From Sterolibacteriaceae bacterium (GTDB lineage: Bacteria > Pseudomonadota > Gammaproteobacteria > Burkholderiales > Rhodocyclaceae), in the NCBI GenBank assembly GCA_043738385.1, contig JAYUGL010000167.1:348-64347 (forward strand): a stretch of DNA of 64,000 nucleotides, read 5' to 3'. Numbering within the stretch: the stretch's first letter is position 1; every line of letters starts with the position of its first letter. Both the position numbers and the translations under genes were made by a program. Positions 44,571-62,633 of the stretch are shown here, piece after piece. The notes under the pieces were generated by a model. The model was given only the letters and a program-made list of their open reading frames with translations, searched no databases and was not told the DNA's origin.

Positions 44571-46118
44571 ATGTTTGCTTCGGTACTCCGCTACCGCTGG
44601 CTGCGCGCGCTGCGGGCCCGTTGGCCATGGGCCGTGGGCCTCTTGCTGGTCATCCTTTCTGGCCAGTTCGCGCTAACTTCGCCACGCAGTGGCGTAGATC
44701 TCGCCGCCATCGGCGTGCTAAAGCCGGTGCCAGGCCAAGCCATCGCCCTGCGCGGCTTGGCGACGGAAGGTAATATCCTCACCTATACGGCGGGCGCGGA
44801 AGGCGGCCTCGATCTCCGCTTCGAACGAGCCCGCTTGGCGCCGGAAACCCTGGCACTGCTCAGCCACCTTGGCATCGTCGCGCCAACCGGTGAGGCGCCC
44901 GTGAGTTGGATCACCCGTGCCGAGCCTGGGATCGGCAAGGAAACCAAGTCGCGTTTCGAGGTGACGGCAGCTGACCCCAACCGGCTTCCGGACATCTTCG
45001 TATTGCGCGTTCTCCCCGGCGCCACCCCGCGCCAGGCGCGCCTCGAAATGGTCTCCAGCGGTGCGCCGCTGGCGGTAATCCTGTCCTTGCCGTGGACCGG
45101 CGCGGACCATGCGCCCCGCAAGATCCTGCGGCTCGGCGCGACCGACCTGGTCCTCCCGGGAACCCTGCCGATCAAGCTGCTGGTGCCAGCCGATGCACGC
45201 TGGCGGGCGATCATCTCGCTGCCTGAGCAGCCCGTACCATCCGCCGCGCTAATCTTCGGGGCCTTCTCCGAACGAGATGGTGGCGGGCTGGCGGCAGCTG
45301 CGCTCGGCCTGGAGCCGGTGCCCGGAGCGTCAGCCTTCCTTGCCTGCGGTACCGCGGCGGGAAGTCTCTTGTGGCGTGCTGCCAGCCGATTGGCCGCTGG
45401 CGCCTGCCCGCCGACCGATCATGCCATCCAGGTACGTTCCCTGACCTTGCGTGCGGATGGTGCAGACTTGGTCGTTGGCGGCAACGCCTGGGTACTAAAG
45501 GATAGCCAGCCCCTTGGCGAGGACCTTCTCGTGCACCTGCGCCGGCAGCCTATATGGTGGGCTTTGCTTCTCCTGGCGGATGGACTGCTCCTCGCCTGGG
45601 CCCTGCTTGCCCTGCTGCCCGGGCCCCGCCGCATTGATCTGCGCGGTGTCTTCATCAGCTATCGGCGTGCCGATAGCGGGCCCCGTGTCGGGCGACTTTA
45701 CGACCAACTGGTGGCGAGACTGGGCGCCGAGAAGGTGTTCATTGATCTCGAGTCGATCCCCGCGGGGACCGACTTTAAGCACTTTATCGCTGACAGCCTG
45801 AGCAAGGTGGACGTGGTTCTGGCGGTGATTGGCCCGCATTGGCTCGACTTGAGGGATGGCAGCGGTCAGCGTCGGCTGGATGCGGAGAACGATCTGGTGC
45901 GCCGGGAGATAGCCGCCGCCCTCGCTGGCGGTCTTCGAGTGATCCCGGTGGTGGTGGGCGGCGGTTCGATGCCGACTGCGGGACAGTTGCCTGCCGACCT
46001 CGCCGCCCTGGCCGGCCGCAATGCCGCAGAGATCGGCGACCGCCAGTTTCTGCGCGACGCCGACGATCTGATTGATCAGATCGAATACGCCCCCCTGCGT
46101 TCCGGTTCAGCAAGTTGA
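44571..46118 (+). CDS. Membrane protein with extracytoplasmic domain, second TM and C-terminal TIR domain (TIR-B)
   Basis: ATG 44571. N-terminal anchor WPWAVGLLLVILSG, ~290-aa hydrophilic region, TM IWWALLLLADGLLLAWALLALL, then TIR (VFISYRRAD, GRLYDQL, DLVRREIAAAL, VIPVVV). Confidence 0.8.
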   Translation: MFASVLRYRWLRALRARWPWAVGLLLVILSGQFALTSPRSGVDLAAIGVLKPVPGQAIALRGLATEGNILTYTAGAEGGLDLRFERARLAPETLALLSHLGIVAPTGEAPVSWITRAEPGIGKETKSRFEVTAADPNRLPDIFVLRVLPGATPRQARLEMVSSGAPLAVILSLPWTGADHAPRKILRLGATDLVLPGTLPIKLLVPADARWRAIISLPEQPVPSAALIFGAFSERDGGGLAAAALGLEPVPGASAFLACGTAAGSLLWRAASRLAAGACPPTDHAIQVRSLTLRADGADLVVGGNAWVLKDSQPLGEDLLVHLRRQPIWWALLLLADGLLLAWALLALLPGPRRIDLRGVFISYRRADSGPRVGRLYDQLVARLGAEKVFIDLESIPAGTDFKHFIADSLSKVDVVLAVIGPHWLDLRDGSGQRRLDAENDLVRREIAAALAGGLRVIPVVVGGGSMPTAGQLPADLAALAGRNAAEIGDRQFLRDADDLIDQIEYAPLRSGSAS

Positions 46119-46248
46119 TTTGCGCGTGCGCCATAAAAAGTTTCACTGCGAGATGCAAATCGTTCCTGACGCTGCTGATGCATAGAGGATTTGTTGGGGC
46201 TTCACCTCCGCCAAGTTGCTCAAGTTGACGCACACAACGCATGCCATT

Positions 46249-46278
46249 GGAAAACGCAGCGTCGAAAACGGACGCTGC
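46249..46278 (-). terminator. Terminator candidate in the convergent gap between TIR-B and TIR-C
   Basis: 8-bp stem GCAGCGTC/GACGCTGC (46256-63 / 46271-78) with a 7-nt loop, followed on the minus strand by GTTTTCC. Confidence 0.35.
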
Positions 46279-46384
46279 TCAAAAGGAAAAATCGACGTTG
46301 AAGGCTCGCGCATTGCGAGCGCGGGGACGAAGGCAGAAAAAGCAAACGTAAAGAAGACGGCCACGGCAAAAGCGCCGACAGTGC

Positions 46385-47191
46385 CTACATGCACTTCGAT
46401 TGCCACTGCGAGCCGCCGGCAGGGCAATAGCCGGCGCAGGCTGCGGCTTCGTGATATCCGGAAGCGCATTGCGGATTCGGTTGGCTGACTCCCAGGGCCA
46501 CATATCCCCAGCAACCGCATGCCGACGTCGGCATGCCGCTGGCCAGCCCAACCTGTTGCGGCGGCAACTGCTGATTGGGTGGCGTGGACGATTGCTCAAT
46601 GAGGAGTCCGATTACGATCAGCCCGACGAAGATGCCGCCAATCCAGGCCAGCGTTTTCACCAGCTTTGACGATGGCGGAGTCGAGGGCGGCGACGGCACC
46701 CTATTGTCGCCCCCGGGGGTCGGGATGGGGCGCAACCCCAAGCTCTCCAGCGCCGCAGCCAGTTGCTGCACGTCGTAATCCCAGCGCTCGTCCGACAAAG
46801 TGAGCGCCTGACGCCGGGCCAGCGGCTTGAGGTCCTCGGGCAGGTCTGCGTCAACGGGTGACGCGGCGCCTTCCACCAGCACCGGAATCACCCGGATGCC
46901 GCGCTTGAGCGCGGCCGCGATTTCCAGCCGAATCCAGTCATTGGGGAGGTGCAGCCGACTCTGATCTCCGCTATCGCCGGCCCAGCGGCGGCCGATGACG
47001 GCCAGCATGACCGAGCACGACGAGAGCGCACCCTCGATGGCTTCGACGAAGTCAACACCGGGCTGGATGGTCTCGACGTCGCGGAATATCTGCGCCTTGC
47101 CGAAACGCCGCTCCAGGCTGTCGGCCAATCGCCCGGCAGCACTCTGGCTGTCCTGGCGCCGGTAGCTGATGAAAATGCCTGACGCTGCCAT
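46385..47191 (-). CDS. TIR domain, single TM, Cys-rich tail (TIR-C)
   Basis: IFISYRRQD, GRLADSL, DWIRLEIAAAL, VIPVLV. TM LAWIGGIFVGLIVIGLLI. The last ~44 aa contain 6 Cys. Confidence 0.8.
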   Translation of the reverse strand: MAASGIFISYRRQDSQSAAGRLADSLERRFGKAQIFRDVETIQPGVDFVEAIEGALSSCSVMLAVIGRRWAGDSGDQSRLHLPNDWIRLEIAAALKRGIRVIPVLVEGAASPVDADLPEDLKPLARRQALTLSDERWDYDVQQLAAALESLGLRPIPTPGGDNRVPSPPSTPPSSKLVKTLAWIGGIFVGLIVIGLLIEQSSTPPNQQLPPQQVGLASGMPTSACGCWGYVALGVSQPNPQCASGYHEAAACAGYCPAGGSQWQSKCM

Positions 47192-47347
47192 TGTTATCGC
47201 CTTTCGTTGAACACTGAATCGTCATGCCTGTCTTTGATGCTGTGTAGCACTACAGCCCGTGTCCTGTTGTCGATCATTCGGCCCAGCTTCTAGCCTGAGC
47301 CCATGCTACCTGCGGCATATTTCAATGTAAACCGCGGGTCGTCGCGC

Positions 47348-48517
47348 TCACACGAATCCGGCGAAATGGGCCGGCTGCACCTGCTTCGCGGCGGCTTGGC
47401 CGACCTTCTGGATCTCGGCTATGTATTGCACCGAATCCAGCATCTGGACGTGGTTCGGATCGACCTCCGCGAGACCCAAAGCGTCGAGGCCCGCGCGGCT
47501 CAGGTCCGCGTCATAACGCAGGTAGGTGAACAGCTTGGCGCCGGTCCAGTTGCTCTGGTCGCCGGGTTGTACCAAGAGGCCGCCGATCTCGCGATCAATC
47601 GGCCCGCCCGCGCGGCATGCGCCGAGCATCCGACACGCCGTGTCCCAGCCGGCAGCGGCGGCATTCATCAGCGCCGCCGGAATATTCTTGACGTGATCGA
47701 GCAGCCATAGATCATCGGCCTTCAGTTCCGGCCTGGCCATCGCCGCGCCGCCCGTGCCGACCGATACGATCAGCAGCTTGTCCGCGCCTGTGGGCCAATT
47801 CACCTTGTACGGCGCCGTAGTGGCCATCTGGAAGGCGAGAAAAGCTGGGTTGTTGTAGGTCGTCACACCGCCGTCTACAAATACGAACTGATACTCGTTT
47901 GGCGTACCTTCGGCGAAAGTCACCACTTCGGGCGGAAAGAACGTCGGTGCTGCCGTGCTGGCCCGCACCAGTTGCCATAGTGGCAGGTTGAGGTTGCAGT
48001 CTTTGCGATCAGCCTGGTTGTACTTGCCCAGCGGATTGTTGAACACCGGCCAGGGCGAATCAGTGGTGTGGTTGCGCAGCACCATCATCAGCAGGGTGCG
48101 CAGGTTCGCGTCGCCCAGCGTGGCGGGTGGCACGTTGTCAGCATGGCCAAGCGCGCGGTTGAGTTCAGTGCGCAGCTTTCCGGCCAACGGCTCATCGTTG
48201 TAGCTATAGCGCAGACGCTTGAAGAGGCTGGCCTTGTCGAACATCTGCTCGCCGCTACCAACGTAGAACGCGCGAATCCTGTCCATCGACATGCCGGCAG
48301 AGATGCAGGCGGCGATGATGGCGCCGGTGCTGGTGCCGCAAACGAAGTCGAAGTAATCGGCAAGCACCAGATCTGGCTTGCCGCACTGTTCGCGCAGTTG
48401 CGCTTCGATCCGCGCCAGGATTTCGACACTCATCAGGCCGCGGATGCCACCGCCATCGCAGGCGAGGATCTTCTTGGGGCCGGCGGACTGCATGCGCTTC
48501 AGGACCTGCTCGTTCAT
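47348..48517 (-). CDS. Patatin-like phospholipase
   Basis: DGGGIRG oxyanion loop, GTSTG nucleophile elbow and FVDGGV Asp motif. GGGAGA RBS. Confidence 0.9.
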   Translation of the reverse strand: MNEQVLKRMQSAGPKKILACDGGGIRGLMSVEILARIEAQLREQCGKPDLVLADYFDFVCGTSTGAIIAACISAGMSMDRIRAFYVGSGEQMFDKASLFKRLRYSYNDEPLAGKLRTELNRALGHADNVPPATLGDANLRTLLMMVLRNHTTDSPWPVFNNPLGKYNQADRKDCNLNLPLWQLVRASTAAPTFFPPEVVTFAEGTPNEYQFVFVDGGVTTYNNPAFLAFQMATTAPYKVNWPTGADKLLIVSVGTGGAAMARPELKADDLWLLDHVKNIPAALMNAAAAGWDTACRMLGACRAGGPIDREIGGLLVQPGDQSNWTGAKLFTYLRYDADLSRAGLDALGLAEVDPNHVQMLDSVQYIAEIQKVGQAAAKQVQPAHFAGFV

Positions 48518-48538
48518 GTCATTCTCCCAATACGTGTC

Positions 48539-50104
48539 TCAGGCGGACGGTCCGCCCGGCGCAACCGTGAACAACGCCTCGAACACTTCGCGTGCCTTGG
48601 CGGTATTCATGCGGCCAGCTTCCAGCCAAAGGAAACGTCCGCAGGGCGCGGCGCCAATATCGGCGGCGGCGGTCTGCCGGTCGGTTTTGTCATCGTAAAG
48701 CACAACGACACGACGCAGGTTCGCGACCTTGACCAAGACGCTCAGTTCGTAGCGGCAACCGTGGTTCTGCGATTGAAAGCCGCGCAGGTCCATGAGCACG
48801 ACGTCGCAGCGATTCACCAATGCGGTCAGCGCGGACTCCCAGGTCGTGTCGCGGCAGTAGCACTCGTTCACTCGATAGCGACCGTCCGGGTCGGGCTTGA
48901 GGTCGAAATTGGCCAGACGCTGCGGCACGTCGGGTTCGCTGTTGATGAAGCGTTTGCCCAGTTGCCCGTCGAGAAAAGTGAACAGGTCATCCGGATCGAG
49001 GGTACGGCTGACAAGGTCGGTGCCAGCGATCAGCATGGTGTTGCCGGTGAAGCGCCAGCGCTCGATCACCTGATCGAACAAGGCCTCCAGCTGCGCGTCA
49101 TGCTGAAAGACCCGCAGCACCAGCAAAGTGGCCGGGTTGTCTTCCCGCGGCCGCCAGATCGTCAGCACCCACCAGCCGACGGGGATCCAGAGCCACGGGA
49201 TCAACAAGCTCAGGCCGCTGGTGCCGACACCGGCAAATGCGGGAACGGCATTGCCCATGAGGATGACAAACCAATAGATGGCGAAGAGATAACCGAGATC
49301 GGAGAAACGCTTGTTGCGGTAAGCGCCGGCCATGCGACGACCTAGCGCGAACACCGGCCATGCAAGCAGCGCCCAGGGTGCCAGGGCGCAGAACAGCATC
49401 GTGCCCTTGACGCCGAAGACGTCGACCAATGGCGCCACAACCTGCCAGCTCGTGTTCACGTTGGTGCTGAGGGCCTGGAGCGCGAGGATCGAGGCACTGG
49501 AAAGAACCAGCGCCGGCGGCAACAGATAAGGCGCCACGGCCCGAATGCGACCACTGGCACTGATGATCAGTGTAATGATGAGTGGCACGCCCATCTCGGT
49601 GGACAACCAGCCGACGACCGCTAGCAGCGATTGCTGGGCATTGGAACGCAGCATCACGAGCACGATCATGATCACGAGATATATTGCGATGCCACCCAGC
49701 ACCCGGCCCCAGGGCCAGCGCAGGGTCAAGCCCCAGGCCAGCACCATCGGCCAGCCATAGACCGCGCCGAGCAGCAGTAGCCGATTGACCGAGAACGCCT
49801 TGACCTGAACGATCAAGGCAAACCACGCTTGCGTCAGCGCCACCAACACGCAAACCCCGGTCAGCGCCACCAGAAGGCGCATGGTCACGCGGCGATTTGC
49901 CGCGAGGTCCAACCGCGCTGGCATCCGCGGCGGCAAGGCCAACACCTCGGTAACGCCCGCACGCGCGACATCAGGCGCGGCCCCGCCACGCATCAGGATC
50001 ACCATGCGCCGTCGGTACAACCCGGCCACCACCCACGCAAGGCTGGCGGCGAGGAATACACCCAACATCAGGGCGACGAATAGGTGGCCGCTTTGAATTC
50101 CCAT
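48539..50104 (-). CDS. Multi-pass membrane protein with a C-terminal soluble alpha/beta domain of unknown function
   Basis: About 10 hydrophobic helices over the first ~320 aa, then a ~190-aa domain (LLVLRVFQHD...CDVVLMDLRGF...VVVLYDD) with alternating strand/helix character. No motif recognised. Confidence 0.6.
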   Translation of the reverse strand: MGIQSGHLFVALMLGVFLAASLAWVVAGLYRRRMVILMRGGAAPDVARAGVTEVLALPPRMPARLDLAANRRVTMRLLVALTGVCVLVALTQAWFALIVQVKAFSVNRLLLLGAVYGWPMVLAWGLTLRWPWGRVLGGIAIYLVIMIVLVMLRSNAQQSLLAVVGWLSTEMGVPLIITLIISASGRIRAVAPYLLPPALVLSSASILALQALSTNVNTSWQVVAPLVDVFGVKGTMLFCALAPWALLAWPVFALGRRMAGAYRNKRFSDLGYLFAIYWFVILMGNAVPAFAGVGTSGLSLLIPWLWIPVGWWVLTIWRPREDNPATLLVLRVFQHDAQLEALFDQVIERWRFTGNTMLIAGTDLVSRTLDPDDLFTFLDGQLGKRFINSEPDVPQRLANFDLKPDPDGRYRVNECYCRDTTWESALTALVNRCDVVLMDLRGFQSQNHGCRYELSVLVKVANLRRVVVLYDDKTDRQTAAADIGAAPCGRFLWLEAGRMNTAKAREVFEALFTVAPGGPSA

Positions 50105-50146
50105 ATCAACCGTCCCCGGGTTCAGCCACGCGTCTCGATATCGACC

Positions 50147-51088
50147 TCACGACGAACCGCCATCTCGCTTGGCGACGAACTCCACCGGCGTATGCACCGA
50201 ATACCCGCCGCTGATTTCCAGTGTGAAACGTATGCTTTCGGGCGTTACCTGACCGATGTAGTGATGCGTCACCTCCTTCGGTTCCCCGCCGCTGCTGATC
50301 GACTCCAGGCTGCGTGTCACGAAGCTCAGCCACTCGCCCTCCAGCTTTGCCTGTTCTATCGTCAGACGGCCCCCTTCGAATGAGGCCGTGCCGTGCAGCG
50401 CATTGGCCAGGTATTTGAACTCGAACACTTCGTCATACTGGTCGCCCCAGTCGTACTTCACCCGCGCGCTCCAGCGCCCGCTGAGATCCACTGCGGCTTG
50501 GTGCGCCACCGGGGTGCTTGTCGATGTTGCTGGAACAAAGCGCAATGCCGCAAACACACCGACCACGACAATCGCAACGGCCGCGACAATCAGGCGCGCT
50601 CGGCCGAAGCCAGGCTTTGCGTCGTGGGCTTCCGGCGACAACTCCCTCAATCTCGCCACCAGCCGCTCGACATCCGTCCGCCAGTCGGCATCGGACAACA
50701 CCATGGCCTGGTGGCGCGCCAGGCTGGCGATGGCATCGGGCAGATCCTCGCCAGCCGGCATTGCCGCGCCGCCCAACAGCAAGGGGATGACCGGCTTGCC
50801 GGACGCGAGCCCGGCAGCCACCTCGCGGCGAACAAAATCGTCCGGCGCATCGAGTCGTCGCCCGCCGTCGGCGCCGGCCTCCAGCCAGTGGGGTCCGATC
50901 ATCACCAGCATCGCGTGGGCGGACTGCAATTGTCTGTTGATGGCCTCGACGAAGTCCTCGCCGGGCTGAATGTCGTCCACATCGCGGAACACGCTGCCGA
51001 CCCCGAAGGCCGTCTCAAGCGCATCCGCCAGGCGGCCGGCGAAACCGGCGTTGTCGTCGCGACGATAGGAAAGAAAGAATCTGGGCAT
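50147..51088 (-). CDS. TIR domain, single TM, ~120-aa extracytoplasmic beta-rich domain (TIR-D)
   Basis: Internal ATG 51088 (MPRFFLSYRRDD). GRLADAL, DFVRREVAAGL, VIPLLL. TM LIVAAVAIVVVGVFAALRFV. The upstream part of the listed ORF overlaps the previous gene. Confidence 0.8.
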   Translation of the reverse strand: MPRFFLSYRRDDNAGFAGRLADALETAFGVGSVFRDVDDIQPGEDFVEAINRQLQSAHAMLVMIGPHWLEAGADGGRRLDAPDDFVRREVAAGLASGKPVIPLLLGGAAMPAGEDLPDAIASLARHQAMVLSDADWRTDVERLVARLRELSPEAHDAKPGFGRARLIVAAVAIVVVGVFAALRFVPATSTSTPVAHQAAVDLSGRWSARVKYDWGDQYDEVFEFKYLANALHGTASFEGGRLTIEQAKLEGEWLSFVTRSLESISSGGEPKEVTHHYIGQVTPESIRFTLEISGGYSVHTPVEFVAKRDGGSS

Positions 51089-51102
51089 GGAGAGAAACAG
51101 CG

Positions 51103-52464
51103 TTACCCGTTTTGCCCAAGATCCGCGGCGCCGAGGCAAGCGATTTCGGCCAACGACGACTGCACAGCCTTGATCTGGGTCGCGCTCGTTTCGAGCATCC
51201 AGGCGGGCACGTTCAACGCCCATGCTTCCGCCTGCCACTTGGCTGCCGCAGCGGTATCACCCAGCCCCACGGCCGCTTCGCGCAGCGTGGCGACAATCCA
51301 AAAGCGTTTCTCGGCATCGATATCCTTATCGAGCAGCGGTTGCGCGTACTGAATCACCAGGCGCCGGGTGCGTTTTGCCAGCACCGCGTCGGTCATGCCT
51401 TCGTCCCGGTCACCGGCCTTTAGCGCCTTCAAAGCCCGCATGTCCAGCAGATGGGCCAGATTGATGCCGTTGTAGTAGTCCTGCTTGAGATGGAAACCGC
51501 GCTCGCAGGCGGCGATGCTCTCATCGAGGTCCTGTTCCTGGTGGTTGAGATCCCACAGGCGCTTGTGGATGGCGCCCCACAAGCCCAGCGTTTCCGGATC
51601 GTTGGTGGTCGCCGGCGAGAGCTCGCGCAGGATGTCCTTGGCCGCCAGGAGCGCCGCGTCGGGCGTCGGCTGTTGAGACTTGTAGGTGGCGAGCGCGAGC
51701 TGCTGAATGACGAAGCTATCGTTGGGTCGTTGCTTGCGCACTTCCTCAAGCAACCGCTGGGCATTGGCGAAGTCCCCGGAACCGATCCTGCCCAGGGCAT
51801 CATCGAGGACCGACTTGGCGCTCGCGGCTTCCGGTTCCGGGCCTTCAGCGCAGGTGCCGGGGGACAGCTGCGGAGGCCGCATGCGCGCGACGATCGGGGT
51901 CAGGTGGTCTGCAACTGCTGGCCCGGTGCCTCCCGCCGCCACGGCGGCGGGAGGCACCGGGCGGGGCTTTTCCAGCTCCGGTGGAATCAGGTCGGGCAGG
52001 AAGGTATACACCGGGCTATCAATCTCCCCGCTCGCCAGGATGTCGGCGATGGCCTGCTTCAGGTCATCGCGGAAGCGCTTCGCCTCTTGCGCGCCGATGT
52101 CCTCGCCCAGATGCTTGTAGCGGCGAATGGCGATGTGGCCGACATCGAAGGGGTTCTTGAACTGTTCCTCGGCAACGATGATCGTGGCGCGATGTCGCAA
52201 ACCATAGCGGATGCCCAGCTCAAAGGCAGCGTTGACGTTGTAGGTGGATAGATCCGCGATGACCAGATCGGCCTGATACAACTGCCGGTACATCGGCGTA
52301 TCGATGGTGCCGGAGTGCGGAATCTCGTCGGCACGCAGGCATGCCAGACCCGCCGCTTCCACCGCCTCTTTGATGATGGCATAGGAAGCGTCAAGGTCGA
52401 GTACGCGCCCGTCGGTGAAATCGGTCTTCTTGCCAAAGCCCTGGACAACAAAACAAGTAGCCAT
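51103..52464 (-). CDS. TIR-like / nucleoside-deoxyribosyltransferase-like N-terminal domain + TPR-like helical domain (DUF4071-like)
   Basis: ATG 52464 with a GGAGG RBS 5 nt upstream. CFVVQGFGKKTDFTDGRVLDLDASY...DLVIADLS...ELGIRYG N-terminal fold, then a ~250-aa helical repeat region. Confidence 0.65.
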   Translation of the reverse strand: MATCFVVQGFGKKTDFTDGRVLDLDASYAIIKEAVEAAGLACLRADEIPHSGTIDTPMYRQLYQADLVIADLSTYNVNAAFELGIRYGLRHRATIIVAEEQFKNPFDVGHIAIRRYKHLGEDIGAQEAKRFRDDLKQAIADILASGEIDSPVYTFLPDLIPPELEKPRPVPPAAVAAGGTGPAVADHLTPIVARMRPPQLSPGTCAEGPEPEAASAKSVLDDALGRIGSGDFANAQRLLEEVRKQRPNDSFVIQQLALATYKSQQPTPDAALLAAKDILRELSPATTNDPETLGLWGAIHKRLWDLNHQEQDLDESIAACERGFHLKQDYYNGINLAHLLDMRALKALKAGDRDEGMTDAVLAKRTRRLVIQYAQPLLDKDIDAEKRFWIVATLREAAVGLGDTAAAAKWQAEAWALNVPAWMLETSATQIKAVQSSLAEIACLGAADLGQNG

Positions 52465-52490
52465 CAACGGTCCTCCAAATTCGACAACAC

Positions 52491-53060
52491 TCAGGCAACT
52501 GCCTGCTTCAGGCCGGTCTCGTAGATCCACTGCCCGCTGCGCGGATCGCGGATGTAGCTCAACTGCTGGCGCCGGTTGGCGCCCTGTCCGGGCGCTTTCA
52601 CCGAGATATGCACCCATCCCGAGTTGGGCCCCTGACGCGGATCGAAGCATTCACAGATGATCTGATCATAGTCGGCAAGGTTGTCGCGCGCCCACTTGGC
52701 CAGTTCCAGTGTGCTCTTGCCGGGGATCTCGACGTCGCAGGCGCAGCCCCGCGTGTGCTGGCTGGTGCTGATCCAGCCAGCCGGCTTTTGTTTCAACGCG
52801 CGCTCGGTCGCCTGGCTGCGGAAAACGCTGTTGGGCGCAAAACTGCCGAACTTGTCGCGCAACACCTGCAAAACATTTCGCGCCAGATACACCGCCGCTT
52901 GCAGTTCGGCGTCGCCGGGAAATCCATTGTCAATACCGAGCCGACTGGCGACTTCGGACTTGGTGAGTTCAAAGACGTGAAAATTCGGCGCGACGAGGTC
53001 TTGCAGGTCCAGCGCCCGGAGCGTGATCTTGTCGAGCGGCGTGGTGGATCGGTCGGTCAT
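52491..53060 (-). CDS. Peptidase M15 (D-Ala-D-Ala carboxypeptidase/endolysin-like) zinc hydrolase
   Basis: Internal ATG 53060 (MTDRSTTPL). Hx6D (HTRGCACD) and distal WVHISV His motifs of the M15 family. The listed ORF's Arg-rich N-terminal extension overlaps the upstream giant gene. Confidence 0.7.
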   Translation of the reverse strand: MTDRSTTPLDKITLRALDLQDLVAPNFHVFELTKSEVASRLGIDNGFPGDAELQAAVYLARNVLQVLRDKFGSFAPNSVFRSQATERALKQKPAGWISTSQHTRGCACDVEIPGKSTLELAKWARDNLADYDQIICECFDPRQGPNSGWVHISVKAPGQGANRRQQLSYIRDPRSGQWIYETGLKQAVA

Positions 53061-53085
53061 GACGGTCTCCCTGGGTCTGTCCGGA

Positions 53086-56000: not shown

Positions 56001-58590
56001 CGCCACCGGGCGGCGTGGCGGGCAGCAGCGATGTCTTGCCGGTCATCAGCAAATCAAGGTAGCCCGGCAGGACGCGCTTCTGGGTGCACAAGGCGTCGTG
56101 CGCGGTATCCTCCGCATACCAGACCGGCACGTCGGGCAGAAAGCCCGATTTCCAGCTCACCGTGCCATCGCCGCATGGGGTGGCGAGAAACTCCAGGCGC
56201 TTGCGTCCCGCCAGCAGTGGATCCTCGTAGTCGGCTACCTGGTAGTCGATCACGGTCGCATCCTGGCAGCCGGCGACGTAGATCATGAACTTGGGGTCGG
56301 CGGGTGCCGCTTTGAGCAGCGCCCAGGTATCGCGCGCCTGTTGCAGCACCGCCTCGTCCGTCACCGGCCAACGGGCACTCAATGCCTTCCTGAGATCCTG
56401 CCACAGCGCGCGCTGCGCGAAATCCCGACTGTCGTCATCGAAGGGCAGAAGTTCCACCAGCCCGGGAAACGCGCGTACCAGATCGATGATTTCATCGGTG
56501 TCGTGCGTCATGTCGAGCAGGCTGAGGTTCGCCTCGGTCGCGTTGTAACCTGTCAGCCAGCGCACCGCTTCGTAGGAGCCGCGGTTGGGTGTACCGAGCA
56601 TCAGGAAGCGGCTGTTCGGCAGCGCCTGGATGCGCCGCCACAGCGCCGCGCCGCGGCTGCCGTCGACGATCATGGCACGCGTCACCAGGCCGCCCATCGA
56701 GTGAGCGACGATGTGTACCGGCTGCTGAGTGCGCTCGATCTCCGGCAACCAGGTCTCCAATTTGTCGGCGAGTTTCGCCGCCGCATCGCGCACCGACAGC
56801 CGCCAGTCATAGGGGAATATCTCGACGCGATGGCTGCGCGCGAGGAATTCCAGTAGCGGGCCGTAGAAATCGTCGAGCAGATCGACCGGCTCGACGCCGG
56901 CTACGTCCATATGAATCTTCGCCAGCCCGCCCCGCAACAAGCTCCAGTAGTTCAACCAGACACCCTCGCCCTGAACGTTCAGAGCACTACCCATGGTCCC
57001 TGGCAGCACTACCGCCAGCGGCCGTGGTTCGGCGGCGGTGCGACTGCGACGCACGGCAGCGCGCCAGCGCGGCTCTGCCTGCGGCGCTTCCTGAATCGGC
57101 TGGAAACCGCCGTCGTCATCGTCGGCCCGGGTGAGGCCCGCCACCAGCCAGCGCACGCTCTTGTCGTTGGCGAAATAGCTGAAGTGACTAACGTTGGCGC
57201 CCTTGTCTAACTGGAAGCGCGCACCCTTCTCCGGACGACGCAAGCCACCGGCCATGGAGCCGGTGTTCACCACCAGGTCGTGATCGGCGCCATAGAACCA
57301 GTCGGTGGCCAGCAGCTTGACCTGGCTCCACAAGCCCTCGCCCTCGATGTCGCCGGCGATGACGCTCAAGTCGGCGCTTGTCACCAGCGCCGGATGCAGC
57401 AGCAGGCGCGTCAACGCGGAACCCGGCATCATGGCTTCAAGCCCTGGCAGCGTGCGCGGATCGGTGCGTTCCTTTACCACCGCCAGCATGAAGTCGGCAA
57501 CATCGCCGACGAGACCGTCGCCACTCAGGAAATTCAGCACCGACAGCCAACGGTCGAGCCGCCCAGAAGCCAGCGTGGTGCCGCGCGCCGGACAGGCCAC
57601 GCGTACGAAACGACCAACCTTCAACTGGCGGTCGTCAAGTTCGTTCAATAGTTGTTGCAGGTTCTTGCGGTCGGCTTGGTAGCCCAAATCGCGCGCCTTG
57701 GCATCATTCGCCGCCAGCGGTCCGAGGTCCAGTTGCCGGGCGATGGTCCGGTCGGCGGCGAAGAGCGTCTGTAGCAGTTCCGGACGTAGCAGGTCGTTCG
57801 CGCGATCGCGCTGGCCGAGGCAAAGCAGCTCGCCGACCAGGCCGCCGCGCGAATGACTGACGAGATGAATCTCGGCGCCCTTCGGCAGCCGCTGCACCAG
57901 ATCCAGCGCGTTGCGGATCGGGCTTTCCGTCATGCTGCGATGCTCCCACGCAAAGACCCGATCGCCATATTTCTCGGCCAGCGTGCGGCGTGCGGCAGCG
58001 CCGACGGCACCGTTCCACAGCTTGCCGAAGCTGCCCTCGCAACTCGACGCGGTGCCATGCAGGAAGACCAGGACCGGCTTGTCCGTGGCGATGCGCGCGT
58101 TTTTTTCGGTCGGCGAAAGCGCAAAAGTATCGCCGAGTGCGCAACGGTAGAGTCCCGGTGCCCTGCCTTTGAGCATTTTTTCTTCAAACGCCCGGCCGAT
58201 GGCGCCGGCCGCCTTTTCTTTCAGATCCACGCCGAAGAACTCGAGCGCCTTGATGCCCAATCCCATCCACCCGCGCTGGCCGCGGGCGCCTGCCCGGGCG
58301 CCGCGCGCCGACGGCTGGAGCTCGATTTCCCAGGCATCGCCGCCATCGCGGCGCACCTCCTTGCGGCCGCTTTCGCGGATCAGATCGTCGGCACGCGTCC
58401 ACAGCACGAAGCCGTTGTCGAGCTCGACCTTCACCACCTCGTCGCTGTGCGCCTCGATCTCCTCGGCGGTCGCGCCCCGCGCAGCGCCAGGCACCACGCG
58501 GCGGTGGCTGGTGATGACGACCGCCTTGCTGGTGGCCGGCGCGGTAGCCGATGACTGTTGGGTGCCACGGATGCGATAGCTGATGGTCAT
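53086..58590 (-). CDS. 1,834-aa multidomain protein: two lipase-type alpha/beta hydrolases + central alpha/beta insert + CHAT (caspase-like) protease + C-terminal helical repeats
   Basis: ATG with AGGAG RBS. SHSRG (Ser247) with DHDLVV/SHF. AHSMGG (Ser631) with GDGTV and AHD (LCAT/PGAP1-like). CHAT dyad HLAGHG (His1335) and FINCCHLG (Cys1400/1401). Residues ~1510-1834 are helical. Confidence 0.85.
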   Translation of the reverse strand: MTISYRIRGTQQSSATAPATSKAVVITSHRRVVPGAARGATAEEIEAHSDEVVKVELDNGFVLWTRADDLIRESGRKEVRRDGGDAWEIELQPSARGARAGARGQRGWMGLGIKALEFFGVDLKEKAAGAIGRAFEEKMLKGRAPGLYRCALGDTFALSPTEKNARIATDKPVLVFLHGTASSCEGSFGKLWNGAVGAAARRTLAEKYGDRVFAWEHRSMTESPIRNALDLVQRLPKGAEIHLVSHSRGGLVGELLCLGQRDRANDLLRPELLQTLFAADRTIARQLDLGPLAANDAKARDLGYQADRKNLQQLLNELDDRQLKVGRFVRVACPARGTTLASGRLDRWLSVLNFLSGDGLVGDVADFMLAVVKERTDPRTLPGLEAMMPGSALTRLLLHPALVTSADLSVIAGDIEGEGLWSQVKLLATDWFYGADHDLVVNTGSMAGGLRRPEKGARFQLDKGANVSHFSYFANDKSVRWLVAGLTRADDDDGGFQPIQEAPQAEPRWRAAVRRSRTAAEPRPLAVVLPGTMGSALNVQGEGVWLNYWSLLRGGLAKIHMDVAGVEPVDLLDDFYGPLLEFLARSHRVEIFPYDWRLSVRDAAAKLADKLETWLPEIERTQQPVHIVAHSMGGLVTRAMIVDGSRGAALWRRIQALPNSRFLMLGTPNRGSYEAVRWLTGYNATEANLSLLDMTHDTDEIIDLVRAFPGLVELLPFDDDSRDFAQRALWQDLRKALSARWPVTDEAVLQQARDTWALLKAAPADPKFMIYVAGCQDATVIDYQVADYEDPLLAGRKRLEFLATPCGDGTVSWKSGFLPDVPVWYAEDTAHDALCTQKRVLPGYLDLLMTGKTSLLPATPPGGARAATTGAEKFVMPTLPPTDSIPDQRDMRSMGFGPGAPVEDAADQMTTPRIQVSVVHGDLSYARYPVLVGHYLGDVIVNAEAALDGRLGRVLTKSLGLGLYPGQPGTHAVFFNEQPSGKPGGAIVIGLGQVGSLSTTVLQTTVCAALLDYALQVARWPDARFGPSGGVRSAAVSCLLVGSGPGGTSVRDCVEVILRGAVLANERLEKAELADKVLVDRIEFVDVFEDAALAAAKALKALLADGQLATAVNWSAGVVEEGQGCRRRLRYDDAPGWWGRLEIIEEKGDGGLRFISATDRARAEITHATGQLRFAEDFIRQASRSPASNSEVAKTLFEMLLPNQLKELAPQQTDMVLLVDEVSARYPWELIEDRWSQSGRPPAVSAGLIRQLKTPQFRLNPHHATEATAFVVGNPDLGGWREFPELPGARDEAQKVSALLSRRGFRVRDCIDENAEDLMDGLHKDAWRILHLAGHGEHEFVLNDDTGAAHDDGAQSVQDITASSKPERRVSGMVIGKNTFLTPGDIEQMRWVPELVFINCCHLGKTQAEGHGEYSALAANLGVQFINMGVKAVVAAGWAVDDGAAGAFAESFYRHMLDPDCPMTFGEAVKAARAAVWASFPEVNTWGAYQCYGDHGYRLRGEGSARPSQPSFLAPAELVAELDNHRESIRMQMKEKGEDVEAVARMRATIDALLAGAPEAQRGEWAARADVAAAAGFAWGETGEYAKGVEWLNKALHADLGDCPLRAVEQCANFQVRLCGQRWQALRASKRGKAADRRGLVADIEHAVRELDVICQRAPTVERLNLLGGACKRLAWVCDDATPRFEALVNMASYYHQAFKRGNNENPYPFSNWAIATVFVAVLDRTRSDHWRSIVDDQCQRMIAIATARKEANPNFWDAVGEADCELARLLLQTGNAATQSVGRIVARYRAAAQRGASPREYASVLEHLDFVAELAGIASLPAAEAIKSVRAAL

Positions 58591-58637
58591 GACAGGCGCT
58601 CCTCGTTCAAATTCGGTGGGTCCGCCGGACGGCGTGG

Positions 58638-59429
58638 TCAGGTGAACACGTCGAATCGGCGGGCGGCCGCGCTGCCGAATATCTGCGGGTGCTGCGGCAG
58701 TTTGCTGGAAGGCAGGTAGGCACTGATCAGTTTGAACCAGTCGTCATAATTGGACGGCGCGTCCTCGCGCAGCGTCTTCAGCGCGTAGTAGGTGAAGGCG
58801 CCGTTAGGCCGGCCATGGAAGCGCGTATCCCAGCTGTATTCGGAATCCTCGGCGCCAGCCAAAAGCAGATCGCCGCCGCTGCGCTTGAATCCGTGCACCA
58901 GGGTCTTTGGCCGCTTCGCGGTTGCAGGCAGCTTGCCCGCCGGCATCCAGTCCTGCAAGGGCATGTAGCGGGCGCGCGGCATGCCGGGGGCGGGGTCGGT
59001 TGCATCGCCGCGGGTTACCGAACCGGAGTGGCAGCTGTCGGAGAGCAGCAGGACGCGCACGCCATTCGCGCGCCGGTCGAAAAGTTGATGGATCTCGTCA
59101 TCGAGCAGTGGCCCCGCGCTGCTGATATCCCAGGGGCAGAGACCCTCATCACGGCCATCGGGCTCATCGCCGGAACTGTCCGGCACCCAGGTGCCATGCC
59201 CGGAGTAGGTGATGACCACGGTATCGCCTGACGACACGCCGGAGATCGCCGCGCCGATTAACGCCGCCATGTTAGCCTTGGTGGCCTGGCCGTCGAGCAA
59301 CTTGGTAATGGTGAAGCCGCGCTTGGCGAGTTCCGTCGCCCAGTCATTGGCATCGTTGACGCAGCCGGACAAATCGTTCTGGGTGCCGGGATAGTCGTTG
59401 ATGCCTATGCAAAGTGCCTTCTTCGCCAT
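58638..59429 (-). CDS. Caspase-like peptidase (C14 family, metacaspase/orthocaspase type)
   Basis: ALCIGINDY, His motif YSGHG (His78, nt 59196-59198) and Cys motif LSDSCHSG (Cys133, nt 59031-59033). AAGGAGGA RBS. Confidence 0.9.
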   Translation of the reverse strand: MAKKALCIGINDYPGTQNDLSGCVNDANDWATELAKRGFTITKLLDGQATKANMAALIGAAISGVSSGDTVVITYSGHGTWVPDSSGDEPDGRDEGLCPWDISSAGPLLDDEIHQLFDRRANGVRVLLLSDSCHSGSVTRGDATDPAPGMPRARYMPLQDWMPAGKLPATAKRPKTLVHGFKRSGGDLLLAGAEDSEYSWDTRFHGRPNGAFTYYALKTLREDAPSNYDDWFKLISAYLPSSKLPQHPQIFGSAAARRFDVFT

Positions 59430-59480
59430 GTTGTGTCCTCCTTGGGGCAGGCTTGTGCCACGGACCGACGCACTGTTGGT

Positions 59481-59509
59481 AATCTAGCGATGCAAACAAC
59501 TTTGGTCAA
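59481..59509 (-). promoter_or_regulatory. Candidate internal sigma70 promoter upstream of the caspase-like gene
   Basis: Minus strand TTGACC (59509-04), 17 nt, TAGATT (59486-81), inside an AT-rich 138-nt gap. A 6-bp inverted repeat GTCACG-cc-CGTGAC lies just upstream. Confidence 0.45.
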
Positions 59510-59567
59510 TGATACTGATACGTAAATATTGGTTTGTCACGCCCGTGACTTATCGGACCCACCGGCA

Positions 59568-60389
59568 TCAGAGGCTTCTGGTGTCGATCCAGCAGACCCG
59601 GCCGCTGCGGCGTTTGACTTCTTCGACCATATGGCCGGTGCCACCGGCGCCCTCGGTACCCGCGCCGTTCCAAAGGCAGACGAGACTTACCTTGTCCGGG
59701 CCGCAGACGAGGGCGGTATAGAGCAGCCAGAGATTGCAACGCTCGTAGGGGTAGTCCTCGCTGCTGCCGCGCGGCGGCTGGCCCAGCACCTCCGGTGCGG
59801 CGCGCGGGGGTGCCGCCAGCGCGGCTCTCGACGCCAGGTAACGGCGGTGCCAATCTTCGCCGCAGCCAACCACGGAGGCCGCGATGAACTCCGGTTCGGC
59901 AAAGGGTTGCAGCCAGAACACCTTCACGCCACGTTGCCGACAGGCTTCGGTGAACAGCAGGTCGCCGCCGCATGCGCCCTGCGTCAGCGCGAGATCTTGC
60001 GACCCGGCAGCGAGCCGTTCGAGCGCTTCGGCAATTCTTTGCGCCGCCTGCGCTACCTTGTTGGCGGGAAAACGTGGCGTCGGCCGATCGGGGGCATCGA
60101 TCATATGGCCACTGAACACGAAGACCTGCCTGGGCTGCCAGGTTTCTGCGGCGCGATTCGGAACAGCGGTCCCTTGCCGGCACAGGGCCTGCTCGCTCAG
60201 GCCCTTCGCATTGCCAGCGTTGATAACCAAGGCACGTTCGAGCAGTTCGAGCGCGAACGCGTAGTGCCCCGCCGCACGTAACGCCGCGGCCGCCTCGATC
60301 CAAGTATCGGCGCGAAGCTCCGCTGCCGGCGCCTCGTCGGCGAGCAGCAGCAGATCACCGATGCGGTTCGCCGAGCGGGCGAGACCCAC
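59568..60389 (-). CDS. Hypothetical protein with SLOG/LOG-like Rossmannoid domain (tentative) and short N-terminal helical region
   Basis: This frame is the only protein-like one of three overlapping ORFs. VFVFSGHMID strand, TQGACGGDLLFTEA and GAGGTGHMVEE resemble the GGxxG / GGxGTxxE loops of LOG/DprA/SLOG folds. GTG start. Confidence 0.5.
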   Translation of the reverse strand: MGLARSANRIGDLLLLADEAPAAELRADTWIEAAAALRAAGHYAFALELLERALVINAGNAKGLSEQALCRQGTAVPNRAAETWQPRQVFVFSGHMIDAPDRPTPRFPANKVAQAAQRIAEALERLAAGSQDLALTQGACGGDLLFTEACRQRGVKVFWLQPFAEPEFIAASVVGCGEDWHRRYLASRAALAAPPRAAPEVLGQPPRGSSEDYPYERCNLWLLYTALVCGPDKVSLVCLWNGAGTEGAGGTGHMVEEVKRRSGRVCWIDTRSL

Positions 60390-60437
60390 CCGCGCGTGCC
60401 AGGAATCGTTCGTTGCGATCGTAGCCCCCTTCGGTGT

Positions 60438-61832
60438 TCAACTCCAGGCGCGATTGCCAAGCCCGGCGACGTAGTCGTTGATGAACTTCGCCCAGGCGTT
60501 CTTCTTCGCGAAGTCGAGCGTGCGGTAGAGGCCGCAGACCTTCTTCTTCGGGAAGTAGATCGAGGCGCCGTGCGAATGCGCCATCTTCGCGCCTTTCCAG
60601 CCCGATCGCAGGATCATCTGCGCCGCCGCCGCCTTCACCGCCGCACAGGCGGCCGAAACATCGGCAACGGTGACGAGCTTGGCCAGGCCGTCGCAAAGGT
60701 CAACCAGGTCGACGTAATCGTCGTAGGGTGACGAGTACTCCTGCACCCCGCCGCGTACCGACTGGAGCGCGGTGAAGACCTTCGCGTCGGTCATCGCCTT
60801 GCTGAGCGCGGCGCCGAGGCTATTCACGCCGGCGGCAACGGCATCGATCTTGGCAAGATCCGTGGCGGCGAAGGTGACGCCGGAATTAGCGCCATAAGAC
60901 GCGATGTACTGGGTAACGGCGAGCTTCGAAAGTTCGGCCGGAGACATGGCCGGATTCTTGGCCAGCGCGGTCAGGATGCGGTCGTAAGGCCAGCCTTCGT
61001 TTGGCTCTTCTTCCTGCGAACCCACGGTGTAGGCAGCGACGCCCTTAACCTGGTAGCCGACTTCGAGCATGCTCATCAGGCAGGCGTCGAAACCGAGGAT
61101 GTCGATCTTGCGGCCGAGCAGTTTCTTGATGTCGAGCATGACGCGCTTCATCTCGATGTTGTCGATGTAGTCCTGCGCCTGATCGTCGAAGGCGATGGCG
61201 CGCGACTGCGCCATTTTCTGAACCGTGGTCCGGAACAGCGCGCGACCGCCGCGTCGAATCGCCGCCCGTGCCTGCGCCAGAGGAACCGCGGCCGTCTTCT
61301 TGCGCCCGGCGCCCGCGCGCGCCGACACGCCGCCCTTGGCATCGAGCGTGTAGCCCTTGCGGATCACCGGCGGCGCGTTGCCACCGAAATAGTCGCCGCC
61401 GGCGGCATAAAGGTTCGAATCGTCCCAACCGGCGCCGTGGTTCCAGAGTACCGCCAGGTAATGCTGCGCCGGGTAGGTCTTGATGCCCCAGGTCAGAAAG
61501 TCCTTCAGGACCTTGGGGTCGCCCGTATTCGTCTCGCCCAGATCACCGACGACGTCGGCCGCGACCGGGGTACCCTTGCGCAGCAGATAGCGTTTCGTGG
61601 TTTCCTTGCTGCCCGCCCGATCAAACTGGGCAACGACGTTGATCGAGGCGCTGGAGCCGACCTTCTTCATCTCCAGCAGATCGGTCACTCCGGCGCCGTC
61701 GAGATTGTTGTCGCCGGCCAGATAGACCATGAGGGTCCAGCTGGCATTCGCTTTGGCTTTGGCCGGAGCCGCTTTTTTCGTCGTCGCTCTTCCTGCCGGC
61801 GTCTTTGTTGTCGTTGCGCGTGCCATAGTCAT
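60438..61832 (-). CDS. Clostripain-like cysteine peptidase (C11 family)
   Basis: WTLMVYLAGDNNL, His motif LWNHGAGW, Cys motif GFDACLMSMLE. N-terminal Lys/Ala/Thr-rich low-complexity segment. Confidence 0.85.
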   Translation of the reverse strand: MTMARATTTKTPAGRATTKKAAPAKAKANASWTLMVYLAGDNNLDGAGVTDLLEMKKVGSSASINVVAQFDRAGSKETTKRYLLRKGTPVAADVVGDLGETNTGDPKVLKDFLTWGIKTYPAQHYLAVLWNHGAGWDDSNLYAAGGDYFGGNAPPVIRKGYTLDAKGGVSARAGAGRKKTAAVPLAQARAAIRRGGRALFRTTVQKMAQSRAIAFDDQAQDYIDNIEMKRVMLDIKKLLGRKIDILGFDACLMSMLEVGYQVKGVAAYTVGSQEEEPNEGWPYDRILTALAKNPAMSPAELSKLAVTQYIASYGANSGVTFAATDLAKIDAVAAGVNSLGAALSKAMTDAKVFTALQSVRGGVQEYSSPYDDYVDLVDLCDGLAKLVTVADVSAACAAVKAAAAQMILRSGWKGAKMAHSHGASIYFPKKKVCGLYRTLDFAKKNAWAKFINDYVAGLGNRAWS

Positions 61833-61946
61833 TCTCCCTTACGGTTGGATGTGTGGATCATGCGTACTGCCGCCGGTTGACAATACTCTCACAACATATC
61901 GGCTTCAATGGATGATCGATGCCGACAATCGGTCGCCGGCACGTAA

Positions 61947-62326
61947 CGCCTCGCGAATACCCGCGGCACGGACGGACGGATCCTCCGCGCCGACGATGAT
62001 ACGTTTCTCCGGCAGAATGAAGATGACCACCAATTCGAATACGGTATCTTCCGCCACGGCTTGGTCCGCGCCTGCCGTGACGCGTGCGCATGGCGGTGCC
62101 CACCGGCATGGCGGCGAACTTCTGGGACGACCAGTTCCGTCTGCTCGTGAACGGCGTGCCGCGCGCGCCCGACTCGAACCTGAATCTGACGGTGGAGGGC
62201 GGCGCCGCATTGGACGGTGACGTCACCTTCGAAGTACCGGATACGGCGCAGTCGCTCACGCTTCGGATCCAGCATGGCGCGGACGCCGCGGCCGACCTGC
62301 CGCTGAAGATGGAACCGAAAAAATGA
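61947..62326 (+). pseudogene. Possible frameshifted gene remnant (beta-sandwich-like C-terminal fragment)
   Basis: Two adjoining protein-like stretches in different frames: ...ILRADDDTFLRQNEDDHQFEYGIFRHGLV, then ...NFWDDQFRLLVNGVPRAPDSNLNLTVEGGAALDGDVTFEVPDTAQSLTLRI. Both have G/C-rich third positions but no intact long ORF. Confidence 0.3.
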
Positions 62327-62445
62327 AACCCGCGTCTTCATCGCAATGCCCTTCGGCCCCAAGAAGGACGCCAACGGCCGACGATAACTTCAACCGCATC
62401 CAAGACGAGCGGCTCAAGGAGCGCTTGGTCGCCATCTGCGCGTAA
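62323..62445 (+). pseudogene. Decayed N-terminal fragment of a TIR-like/NDT-like gene (paralog of 51103..52464)
   Basis: RVFIAMPFGPKKDANG (frame 0) and DDNFNRIQDERLKERLVAI (frame 1) together mimic CFVVQGFGKKTDFTDG...LDLDASYAIIKEAV. Two frame changes are needed, and the reading frame stops after ~40 codons. Confidence 0.45.
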
Positions 62446-62511
62446 GTCTGCTGGCGCTCGGCGCTGCGGAATGAAGATTCATTGTCTTTAAGGCAGACGC
62501 AAATACTCGTC

Positions 62512-62538
62512 CGTAAAATCTTTCGCTATCCCGAAAGA
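62512..62538 (-). terminator. Weak terminator candidate downstream of the C1/hydrolase gene
   Basis: 7-bp stem TCTTTCG/CGAAAGA (62519-25 / 62532-38) followed on the minus strand by TTTTA. About 95 nt after the stop at 62634. Confidence 0.3.
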
Positions 62539-62633
62539 GGATCAGGTTCGAGGCGCAATACCGATGAGGTGGCTAATGTGAGCCTTCTATATGAGCGCGG
62601 TTAGCAGCAAAAATTACAACGCGTTGCGATGAA

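Follow-up and report, generated by a model that had tools for sequence, protein, structure and literature searches.

The window analysed here is a stretch of 64,000 nucleotides from a Sterolibacteriaceae bacterium (contig JAYUGL010000167.1). At 46-64 kb it carries a run of minus-strand genes, and among these are three that encode cysteine peptidases of clan CD, namely a C11 (clostripain-family) peptidase, a free C14 caspase-like peptidase and a CHAT domain that forms part of a giant protein of 1834 residues. In the order of transcription the run comprises a gene with papain-like and alpha/beta hydrolase (ABH) regions, an 800-nt gap, the C11 gene, a gene for a 273-aa SLOG protein, the C14 gene, the gene for the giant, an M15_3 peptidase gene, and then genes for a TIR-like/TPR-S protein, a TIR protein, a membrane protein, a patatin and a second TIR protein (Table 1). 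The stretch joins two modules within a TIR/TPR-S conflict island, most likely one for cell suicide or abortive infection.

The first-pass annotation of this DNA had placed three clan-CD peptidases with intact His/Cys dyads at 58638-61832. The genes are real, and from the start of C11 to the stop of the giant they span 8.7 kb, but the interval 58638-61832 takes in only C14, C11 and the SLOG gene between them; CHAT is encoded outside it, at 53086-58590. That all three are clan-CD peptidases with intact dyads is borne out by Pfam scores above the cutoffs and by conservation of the dyads in homologues.

Three clan-CD cysteine peptidases

The C11 protein scores 186.9 bits against PF03415, well above the family cutoff of 25.8, and aligns to the solved C11 structures 6n9j, 6mzo and 4yec, with a PDB match at 6.9e-19. 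Its catalytic motifs are NHGAGW (H132) and FDACLM (D249/C251), and no substitution of H132, D249 or C251 occurs among 26 homologues (57-84% identity). Against the clostripain equivalog TIGR02806 the score is 56 bits, the cutoff being 550; judged by its sequence, the protein is a member of family C11 and not a clostripain orthologue. Translation probably begins at the second ATG (61826) and yields a protein of 462 aa, because a GGGAG lies 7 nt upstream of it and close relatives are called at 462 aa. We take D249 to be the equivalent of the PmC11 S1 Asp, and the Asp of FDAC presumably directs cleavage after basic residues, so that Arg/Lys specificity is predicted for C11.

In the AlphaFold2 (AF2) model of C11 the core has a pLDDT (predicted local distance difference test) above 90, while the N-terminal tail and the linker between His and Cys fall below 50 and are modelled as disordered. 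This linker of about 90 residues (133-223) is conserved in spite of its modelled disorder, its arginines R189, R197 and R211 are invariant in homologues, and in the alignment it corresponds to the break that separates the two chains of PmC11 in its processed form. The N-tail (residues 1-28) is Lys/Ala/Thr-rich and is basic in all homologues. It had earlier been pointed out as a potential pro-peptide; the tail is genuine, but its length varies from about 5 to 45 residues, so that a required pro-peptide is unlikely, and an essential role of this kind was rejected.

The caspase domain of the C14 protein spans residues 3-255 and scores 85.2 bits against PF00656 (cutoff 21.4). Its best PDB match is GSU0716 from Geobacter (3bij, 4.9e-32), followed by metacaspases, and its dyad, H78 in YSGHG and C133 in DSCHSG, is invariant in 20 homologues. 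In the linker between Cys133 and the p10-like part, R152 and R154 are nearly invariant. The length of the family is fixed at 263 aa over 51-94% identity. From the CVNDA motif and the S1 acidic residues in metacaspases, we assume that C14 cuts after basic residues.

The CHAT domain occupies residues 1191-1494 of the giant and matches PF12770 over profile positions 2-289 of 289 (85.7 bits), and 47 of the 48 homologues in the profile alignment retain H1335 and C1401. A PDB sequence search with the CHAT region gave no match. The C-terminal sensor of the giant is a TPR-S repeat (45.3 bits), a domain reportedly named by Burroughs and Aravind in 2020, and no SAVED family is among the Pfam matches of the protein. 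TPR-S is also found by Pfam in a neighbouring 515-aa protein (86.8 bits), as are TIR genes in the island. The gene for the giant follows C14 after a gap of 47 nt.

A larger version of the giant, of 2160 aa, is encoded on a Geobacter-like metagenome contig (L185:15969-21290) with the arrangement DUF7379-LCAT-CHAT-TPR-S-TIR. Its C-terminal TIR_2 domain comes after the TPR-S, a C11 gene lies 4.7 kb upstream, and the locus has no C14. The TIR_2 fusion links the giant to TIR signalling.

No signal peptide or transmembrane segment was found in C11, the SLOG protein, C14 or the giant, nor was any found in 30 sampled C11 homologues. The cytoplasmic location, the long linker and the gene context set the C11 protein apart from every studied C11 enzyme. 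None of the curated NCBIfam models covers these proteins, and in the literature we found no paper linking C11 or clostripain to CHAT or to phage defence.

Table 1. Features of the locus and their positions in the window
Feature	Position	Strand	Description	Basis
CHAT giant, 1834 aa	53086..58590	minus	N-domain, DUF7379 ABH (HSRGG, S247), LCAT-like hydrolase (HSMGG, S631), middle domain, CHAT (H1335/C1401), TPR-S	Pfam
Free C14 peptidase, 263 aa	58638..59429	minus	Caspase/metacaspase-like, no extra domain	Pfam, PDB
C11 cysteine peptidase	60438..61832	minus	Cytoplasmic, clostripain family	Pfam, PDB matches, invariant dyad, AF2
TPR-SLOG protein, 273 aa	59568..60389	minus	Candidate nucleotide sensor or adaptor	AF2, Foldseek
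SLOG-C14 spacer	59430..59567	minus	AT-rich, 138 nt; promoter-like site and AAGGAGG ribosome-binding site of the C14 gene	
Downstream context	46385..53063	minus	M15_3, ThsI-like TIR-like/TPR-S, TIR, 521-aa membrane protein, patatin phospholipase, second TIR	Pfam, PADLOC
Papain-like/ABH gene, 3' part of a protein of about 699 aa	62634..64000, cut by the window end	minus	Weak papain-like (C1) region and alpha/beta hydrolase (GHSAG)	Open reading frame (ORF)

Gene neighbourhoods of C14 and C11

Neighbourhoods were surveyed in two sets of loci: (a) 80 genome loci around homologues of the C11 subfamily (35-86% identity), which span at least 10 phyla as well as two archaea, and (b) 80 metagenome loci centred on homologues of the 263-aa C14 protein (51-74% identity). 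Neighbours were counted from simple calls of same-strand ORFs combined with profile searches, the profiles being built in this analysis, and the counts refer to partners in cis.

The link between C14 and the giant is tight. The giant follows directly after C14 on the same strand in 41 of the 48 loci of survey (b) that have at least 1.5 kb of downstream sequence, and this holds down to 51% identity, the genes upstream of C14 and after the giant being mostly housekeeping genes. C14 and the giant are therefore treated here as a conserved, self-contained pair (module A), to which C11 and the SLOG protein (module B) are a facultative add-on.

The C11 subfamily in turn has a marked habit of adjoining a second clan-CD protease. 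Among same-strand ORFs up to two genes downstream of C11 in survey (a), CHAT is the commonest (11/106), followed by DUF7379 (6) and TIR_2 (4), with PGAP1 and LCAT (other alpha/beta hydrolases) and Peptidase_C25 lower on the list; upstream, Peptidase_C14 and the transglutaminase core tie as the commonest families (4/87 each). With iterated profiles, a C14 or CHAT gene was found in 24 of the 80 C11 loci, and in 18 of these it lies no more than 3 kb away on the same strand. When only the 44 loci with at least 5 kb on both sides are counted, 17 have such a gene. Most C11 loci have at most one clan-CD partner.

The identity of this partner differs between lineages. In Chloroflexota and Anaerolineae it is a CHAT-TPR protein of 745-912 aa with His and Cys intact, and the dyad is likewise intact in a hydrolase-M17N-CHAT protein (L022) and in a DUF7379-CHAT protein from Verrucomicrobia (L037). 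In Methanoperedens the partner is a free C14. C11 is also paired, in either order, with a protein of about 584 aa in which an N-domain precedes C14; these pairs, which occur in Methylomirabilota, Burkholderiales and a deltaproteobacterium, are a separate conserved two-protease dyad. In two Geobacterales loci (L026, L038) C11 stands directly upstream of the giant, in the position held elsewhere by C14. In Verrucomicrobiota the gene order is a hydrolase-C14 fusion, C11, a CHAT-like protein and a DUF7379 protein, separated by spacers of 11-12 nt (L071), and a gammaproteobacterial locus (L076) has all three families, C11, C14 and CHAT, within 6 kb.

The N-domain of the 584-aa proteins, encoded at L011:9328-11082, L020:8185-9936 and L046:11302-13086, is an uncharacterised region of 270 residues.

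The suggestion of the first-pass annotation that the co-location is meaningful is thus upheld, both by the conserved pairing of C14 with the giant and by the enrichment of the C11 subfamily beside CHAT or C14 in several phyla. This subfamily is cytoplasmic and unstudied, and in many phyla it repeatedly has another caspase-family protease as its partner.

The SLOG protein and the probable module boundary

The 273-aa protein encoded between C11 and C14 has no match in Pfam (including STALD and LOG), PADLOC or NCBIfam. Its AF2 model, built with 38 homologues, has a pLDDT of 90.8 and consists of three N-terminal TPR-like hairpins and a C-terminal Rossmannoid domain. In a Foldseek search against the PDB the best match of the latter domain is YpsA (2nx2; probability 1.0, TMt 0.62, E=7e-5), with further matches to DprA, ShosA, LOG-like proteins and TM1055, and the matches to YpsA, DprA, ShosA and LOG-like proteins place the protein in the SLOG superfamily. 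The conserved motifs are FSGHMID, TQGACGGD and GGTxHM, and the Gly-rich loop is present. Across phyla the C-terminal domain keeps about 65% identity, and some homologues carry it as a fusion with a full TPR-S repeat. From the modelled fold, it is plausible that the protein is a nucleotide or other ligand sensor.

A putative ligand sensor between the proteases had also been proposed in the first-pass annotation, and a fold of the nucleotide-sensor type agrees with it; what did not stand is a single three-protease unit around this sensor, since the C14-giant pair occurs without C11 in all 80 loci of survey (b). In general the SLOG protein keeps company with TIR, TPR-S and patatin genes rather than with the peptidases. 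In one locus (L178) it lies with TPR-S and patatin among six TIR genes, with no peptidase listed in the locus, and in another (L175) the order is SLOG, TIR/PASTA, C14 and giant. It adjoins C11 in only two of the 80 genome loci (L015, L019) and lies within 10 kb of it in seven. The SLOG gene was considered as a fixed bridge between the peptidases and rejected in this role, as it is not consistently associated with proteases.

The junction between the SLOG gene and C14 is likely to be the boundary of the C11-SLOG and C14-giant modules. This is suggested by the AT-rich spacer with its promoter-like site, by two extra genes inserted between SLOG and C14 in one Rhodocyclaceae relative genome, and by the housekeeping genes found upstream of C14 elsewhere. 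The promoter-like site (TTGACC-17-TAGATT at 59509-59481) is a consensus match only, with 3 such sites found in the region against 3.1 expected, and the promoter scan alone is no evidence for a boundary.

The island and other neighbouring genes

The genes downstream of the giant provide a TIR/TPR-S (Thoeris-like) setting for the proteases, with a ThsI-like gene and a TIR gene 0.5-3 kb downstream of the giant, and their order is the same in close relatives. The larger order of C1/hydrolase, C11, SLOG, C14, giant, M15, TPR-S, TIR and membrane protein is kept in 94%-identical relatives. A PADLOC and Pfam scan limited to nine genes at 47-64 kb found no cyclase (Cas10 or CD-NTase) among them, and a plasmid search returned one distant Nonomuraea match without useful context.

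The G+C content is 0.62-0.665 across the island (44000-62000 of the window) versus 0.53-0.62 elsewhere in the window, as would fit an island whose TIR and protease genes were all acquired together by horizontal transfer.

The gene after the giant encodes an M15_3-type peptidoglycan peptidase (52491-53063, minus strand). A homologous M15 gene was found by phmmer directly after the giant in L001/L019, L096, L110, L113 and L129, and M15_3 also follows the giant in the gene calls of L001 and L181-L183; through this enzyme the module could also lyse the cell wall. The 521-aa multi-pass membrane protein (48539-50104, minus strand) has no family match, recurs beside the giant or C14 in L001, L066 and L141, and may belong to the same guild as these two proteins.

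The protein of about 699 aa at the window end is a recurrent upstream neighbour of the C11 subfamily, standing directly upstream of C11 in L035 and L181. Its full-length 699-aa homologue in the 94% relative L181 has a weak Peptidase_C1 match below the cutoff (E=0.0019), and the L035 homologue matches C1 at E=1e-4; it is possibly a fourth cysteine peptidase. In Verrucomicrobiota (L071, L073) its ABH part is fused to C14.

Between this gene and C11 lies a non-coding gap of 800 nt (61833-62633). In the 94%-identical relatives L181-L183 the matching spacer measures about 2.3 kb and holds an opposite-strand 548-aa gene without a Pfam match, so that this gene has apparently been lost from the window. 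When the gap was searched by tblastn for remnants of the island's own genes, nothing significant came up; remnants of the 548-aa gene were not searched for.

A proposed branched protease network and its alternatives

Protease cascades have long been regarded as a hallmark of eukaryotic cell death. To our knowledge only one bacterial protease cascade has been dissected so far, that from SAVED-CHAT to PCaspase, and we know of family C11 only from secreted digestive or virulence proteases.

Our favoured reading of the locus, to which we give a probability of about 0.45, is by analogy a branched initiator-executioner network in which the CHAT giant acts on both C14 and C11. Starting from the gene identities, the intact dyads, the cytoplasmic location and the linkages of C14 to the giant and of C11 to CHAT or C14, we infer the trigger signal, the direction of cleavage and the outcome. 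The giant would receive a signal through its TPR-S repeat; if ThsI of type VIII Thoeris, which bears a TPR, is taken as the model, the signal could be a TIR-made nucleotide of the cyclic ADP-ribose (cADPR) type. Its CHAT protease would then switch on and cleave the sensor-less zymogens C14 and, where present, C11 in the Arg-rich linkers between His and Cys, and the cell would be destroyed by the joint action of these executioners, specific for basic residues, and the lipase domains. The SLOG protein would be a second nucleotide-binding component that may tune or separately gate C11. The giant is assigned the role of initiator because C14 and C11 consist of the protease fold alone and their partners carry domains of sensor type (TPR-S, TPR or the N-domain), and because SAVED-CHAT provides a precedent. 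C11 is read as an executioner zymogen because its linker is conserved, modelled as disordered and Arg-bearing and falls at the gap between the chains of processed PmC11.

Several observations weigh against such a network. Of the 44 well-flanked C11 loci, 27 lack both C14 and CHAT in cis, and a TIR gene within 10 kb is missing from most C14-giant loci, so that a TIR-derived trigger is not generally encoded in cis. No RNA-seq runs holding the locus were found, the locus being present only in freshwater-sediment DNA metagenomes. The C11 gene was found in 0/80 metagenome loci of the C14-giant survey, which makes C11 dispensable for that pair, and one genome locus (L004) has C11-SLOG-TPR-S-patatin with a TIR gene upstream and a ThsI-like gene and is without a second clan-CD protease. 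Finally, the verrucomicrobial CHAT-like proteins directly downstream of C11 (L068:2518-4887, L071:3704-5923) have kept the Cys, but their catalytic His is replaced by Glu or Val, and they may act as adaptors without protease activity (pseudo-proteases).

The absence of C11 from the C14-giant loci and the L004 locus are also what would be expected of parallel, independent effectors with sensors of their own, where CHAT is controlled by TPR-S, C11 by a nucleotide bound to SLOG and C14 by binding to the giant, and where the genes cluster simply as defence genes and no protease processes another. The modular structure, the promoter-like site at the module boundary, the SLOG gene among TIR genes with TPR-S and patatin in L178, and the presence in the island of many stand-alone effectors such as the patatin and the ThsI-like protein point in the same direction. 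We nevertheless consider this arrangement somewhat unlikely, as C14 and C11 have no ligand-binding domain of their own, general clustering leaves unexplained why CHAT and C14 top the lists of C11 neighbours and why C14 is so closely tied to the giant, and the SLOG gene is rarely found at C11. It is also conceivable that proteolysis runs the other way, with C14 and/or C11 cleaving the giant and thereby freeing or unmasking its lipase or CHAT domains, or degrading it as brakes. Such a maturation would suit the tight C14-giant pairing, the long inter-domain linkers of the multi-domain giant and the position of C11 or C14 upstream of it in the gene order, but it is improbable given that the TPR-S sensor is on the giant and not on the small proteases, and that the only studied analogue runs from CHAT to C14 (10.1101/2023.06.23.546230).

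An obligate linear cascade, with C11, C14 and CHAT in series and gated by the SLOG protein between them, would account for the closest relatives, where the three proteases occur together in the same order, for the contiguous C14, C11 and CHAT-like genes of the verrucomicrobial locus L071 with their 11-12-nt spacers, and for the three families within 6 kb in L076. It is hard to reconcile with C14-giant loci that never include C11, with C11 loci that mostly have one partner at most, with a verrucomicrobial CHAT-like protein that has no catalytic His and with a SLOG gene that is not consistently tied to proteases, and we regard it as very improbable. That the proteins are ordinary housekeeping or secreted peptidases that are neighbours by chance, a point raised for checking in the first-pass annotation, is scarcely credible. 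The location of clostripain and PmC11, which are secreted or periplasmic (PMC11296011), would speak for it; the proteins of the window and the 30 sampled C11 homologues have no signal peptide or transmembrane segment, the gene contexts are those of conflict islands, with TIR, patatin, TPR-S, STAND and toxin-antitoxin genes as neighbours, and with TIGR02806, whose cutoff is 550, C11 scores 56 bits. A secreted or housekeeping role was rejected for the lack of signal peptides.

A more far-reaching reading concerns the cytoplasmic C11 proteins as a whole, as a previously unrecognised family. They would be dedicated executioner zymogens of bacterial and archaeal cell death or immunity, interchangeable with free C14 caspases and activated by CHAT or caspase initiators that bear a sensor, through cleavage of the long conserved linker between His and Cys, and the window would hold a branched, nucleotide-driven network from CHAT to C14 and C11, plus lipases. 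With C11, a third family of clan CD would then enter regulated cell death in prokaryotes. In this general form the proposal is doubtful. The locus and the survey point to a much wider, unstudied family of multi-protease modules, and the locus ties the TPR-S sensor of Thoeris-type signalling to proteolytic effectors. Should the pairing reflect activation by cleavage, this would be a new function for family C11; it would also offer a testable model of one sensor firing several executioners, proteases as well as lipases, and new ligand-switched proteases that could possibly serve as tools.

Comparison with known systems

The closest known parallel is the type III-B CRISPR/CBASS (cyclic oligonucleotide-based antiphage signalling system) hybrid of Haliangium ochraceum, where SAVED-CHAT cleaves and activates PCaspase (Steens et al., 10.1101/2023.06.23.546230). 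Here too a sensor-fused CHAT is encoded beside a free C14, the catalytic dyads of the caspase-like proteins are at nearly the same positions (H79/C146 in PCaspase and H78/C133 here), and the logic of an initiator CHAT with a promiscuous executioner caspase would be shared, the cleavage being only proposed for our locus. The first-pass claim that these proteins are distinct from known CHAT or caspase effectors must therefore be qualified, as the combination of CHAT and free C14 closely parallels the Haliangium system, whereas the sensor, the lipases and the third protease are indeed different. The sensor is TPR-S and not SAVED, the defining feature of SAVED-CHAT; in addition, the CHAT protein bears two hydrolases of the lipase type, and it is accompanied by C11 as a third clan-CD protease and by a SLOG protein. 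Neither cyclase nor type III CRISPR genes were seen beside CHAT, and there are no sigma factor, kinase or inhibitor genes.

In type IV Thoeris a TIR signal activates the caspase-like effector ThsE (Rousset et al., 10.1101/2024.10.24.620036). The island resembles this system in having TIR genes and a caspase-family protease together, and the outcome is likely to be similar, that is, indiscriminate cleavage after basic residues leading to abortive infection. In ThsE, however, the ligand-binding domain is part of the protein itself, at its C-terminus, and the only other gene of the operon encodes a short TIR, whereas C14 is here a bare 263-aa protein whose fixed partner is the giant and not a TIR, most C14-giant loci having no TIR nearby. 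Because C14 has neither a ligand domain nor a fixed TIR partner, the system is not type IV Thoeris. Type VIII Thoeris, with a TIR and ThsI (CMP-hydrolase-TPR), uses cADPR as its signal, and the TPR of ThsI is proposed to perceive it (Yirmiya et al., 10.64898/2025.12.03.692087). The same TPR-S sensor repeat is present at the C-terminus of the giant, ThsI-like and TIR genes are nearby in the window, though a TIR is not within 10 kb in most C14-giant loci elsewhere, and homologues of the SLOG protein are fused to or beside TPR-S; the effector on the TPR-S is here a protease-lipase giant and not a nucleotide hydrolase.

SLOG is the 3'cADPR receptor in ThsA of type I Thoeris (as stated in 10.64898/2025.12.03.692087). 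The 273-aa protein has the Rossmannoid SLOG fold and Gly-rich loop of the YpsA/ThsA type, and ligand binding by it is putative on the basis of the model; unlike ThsA it stands alone, carrying TPR hairpins but no effector fused to it. As for C11, the protein shares with clostripain and PmC11 (MEROPS C11; PDB 4yec, 3uws, 6mzo, 9cip) the fold, the His/Cys dyad and the Asp two residues before the Cys (FDAC), and like them it is predicted, by analogy, to have its activation site in the loop after the catalytic His. It differs from these classical, secreted or periplasmic enzymes (PMC11296011) in having no signal peptide, a conserved linker of about 90 residues in place of about 20 and a basic N-tail, and in its gene context, which is one of cell death or defence.

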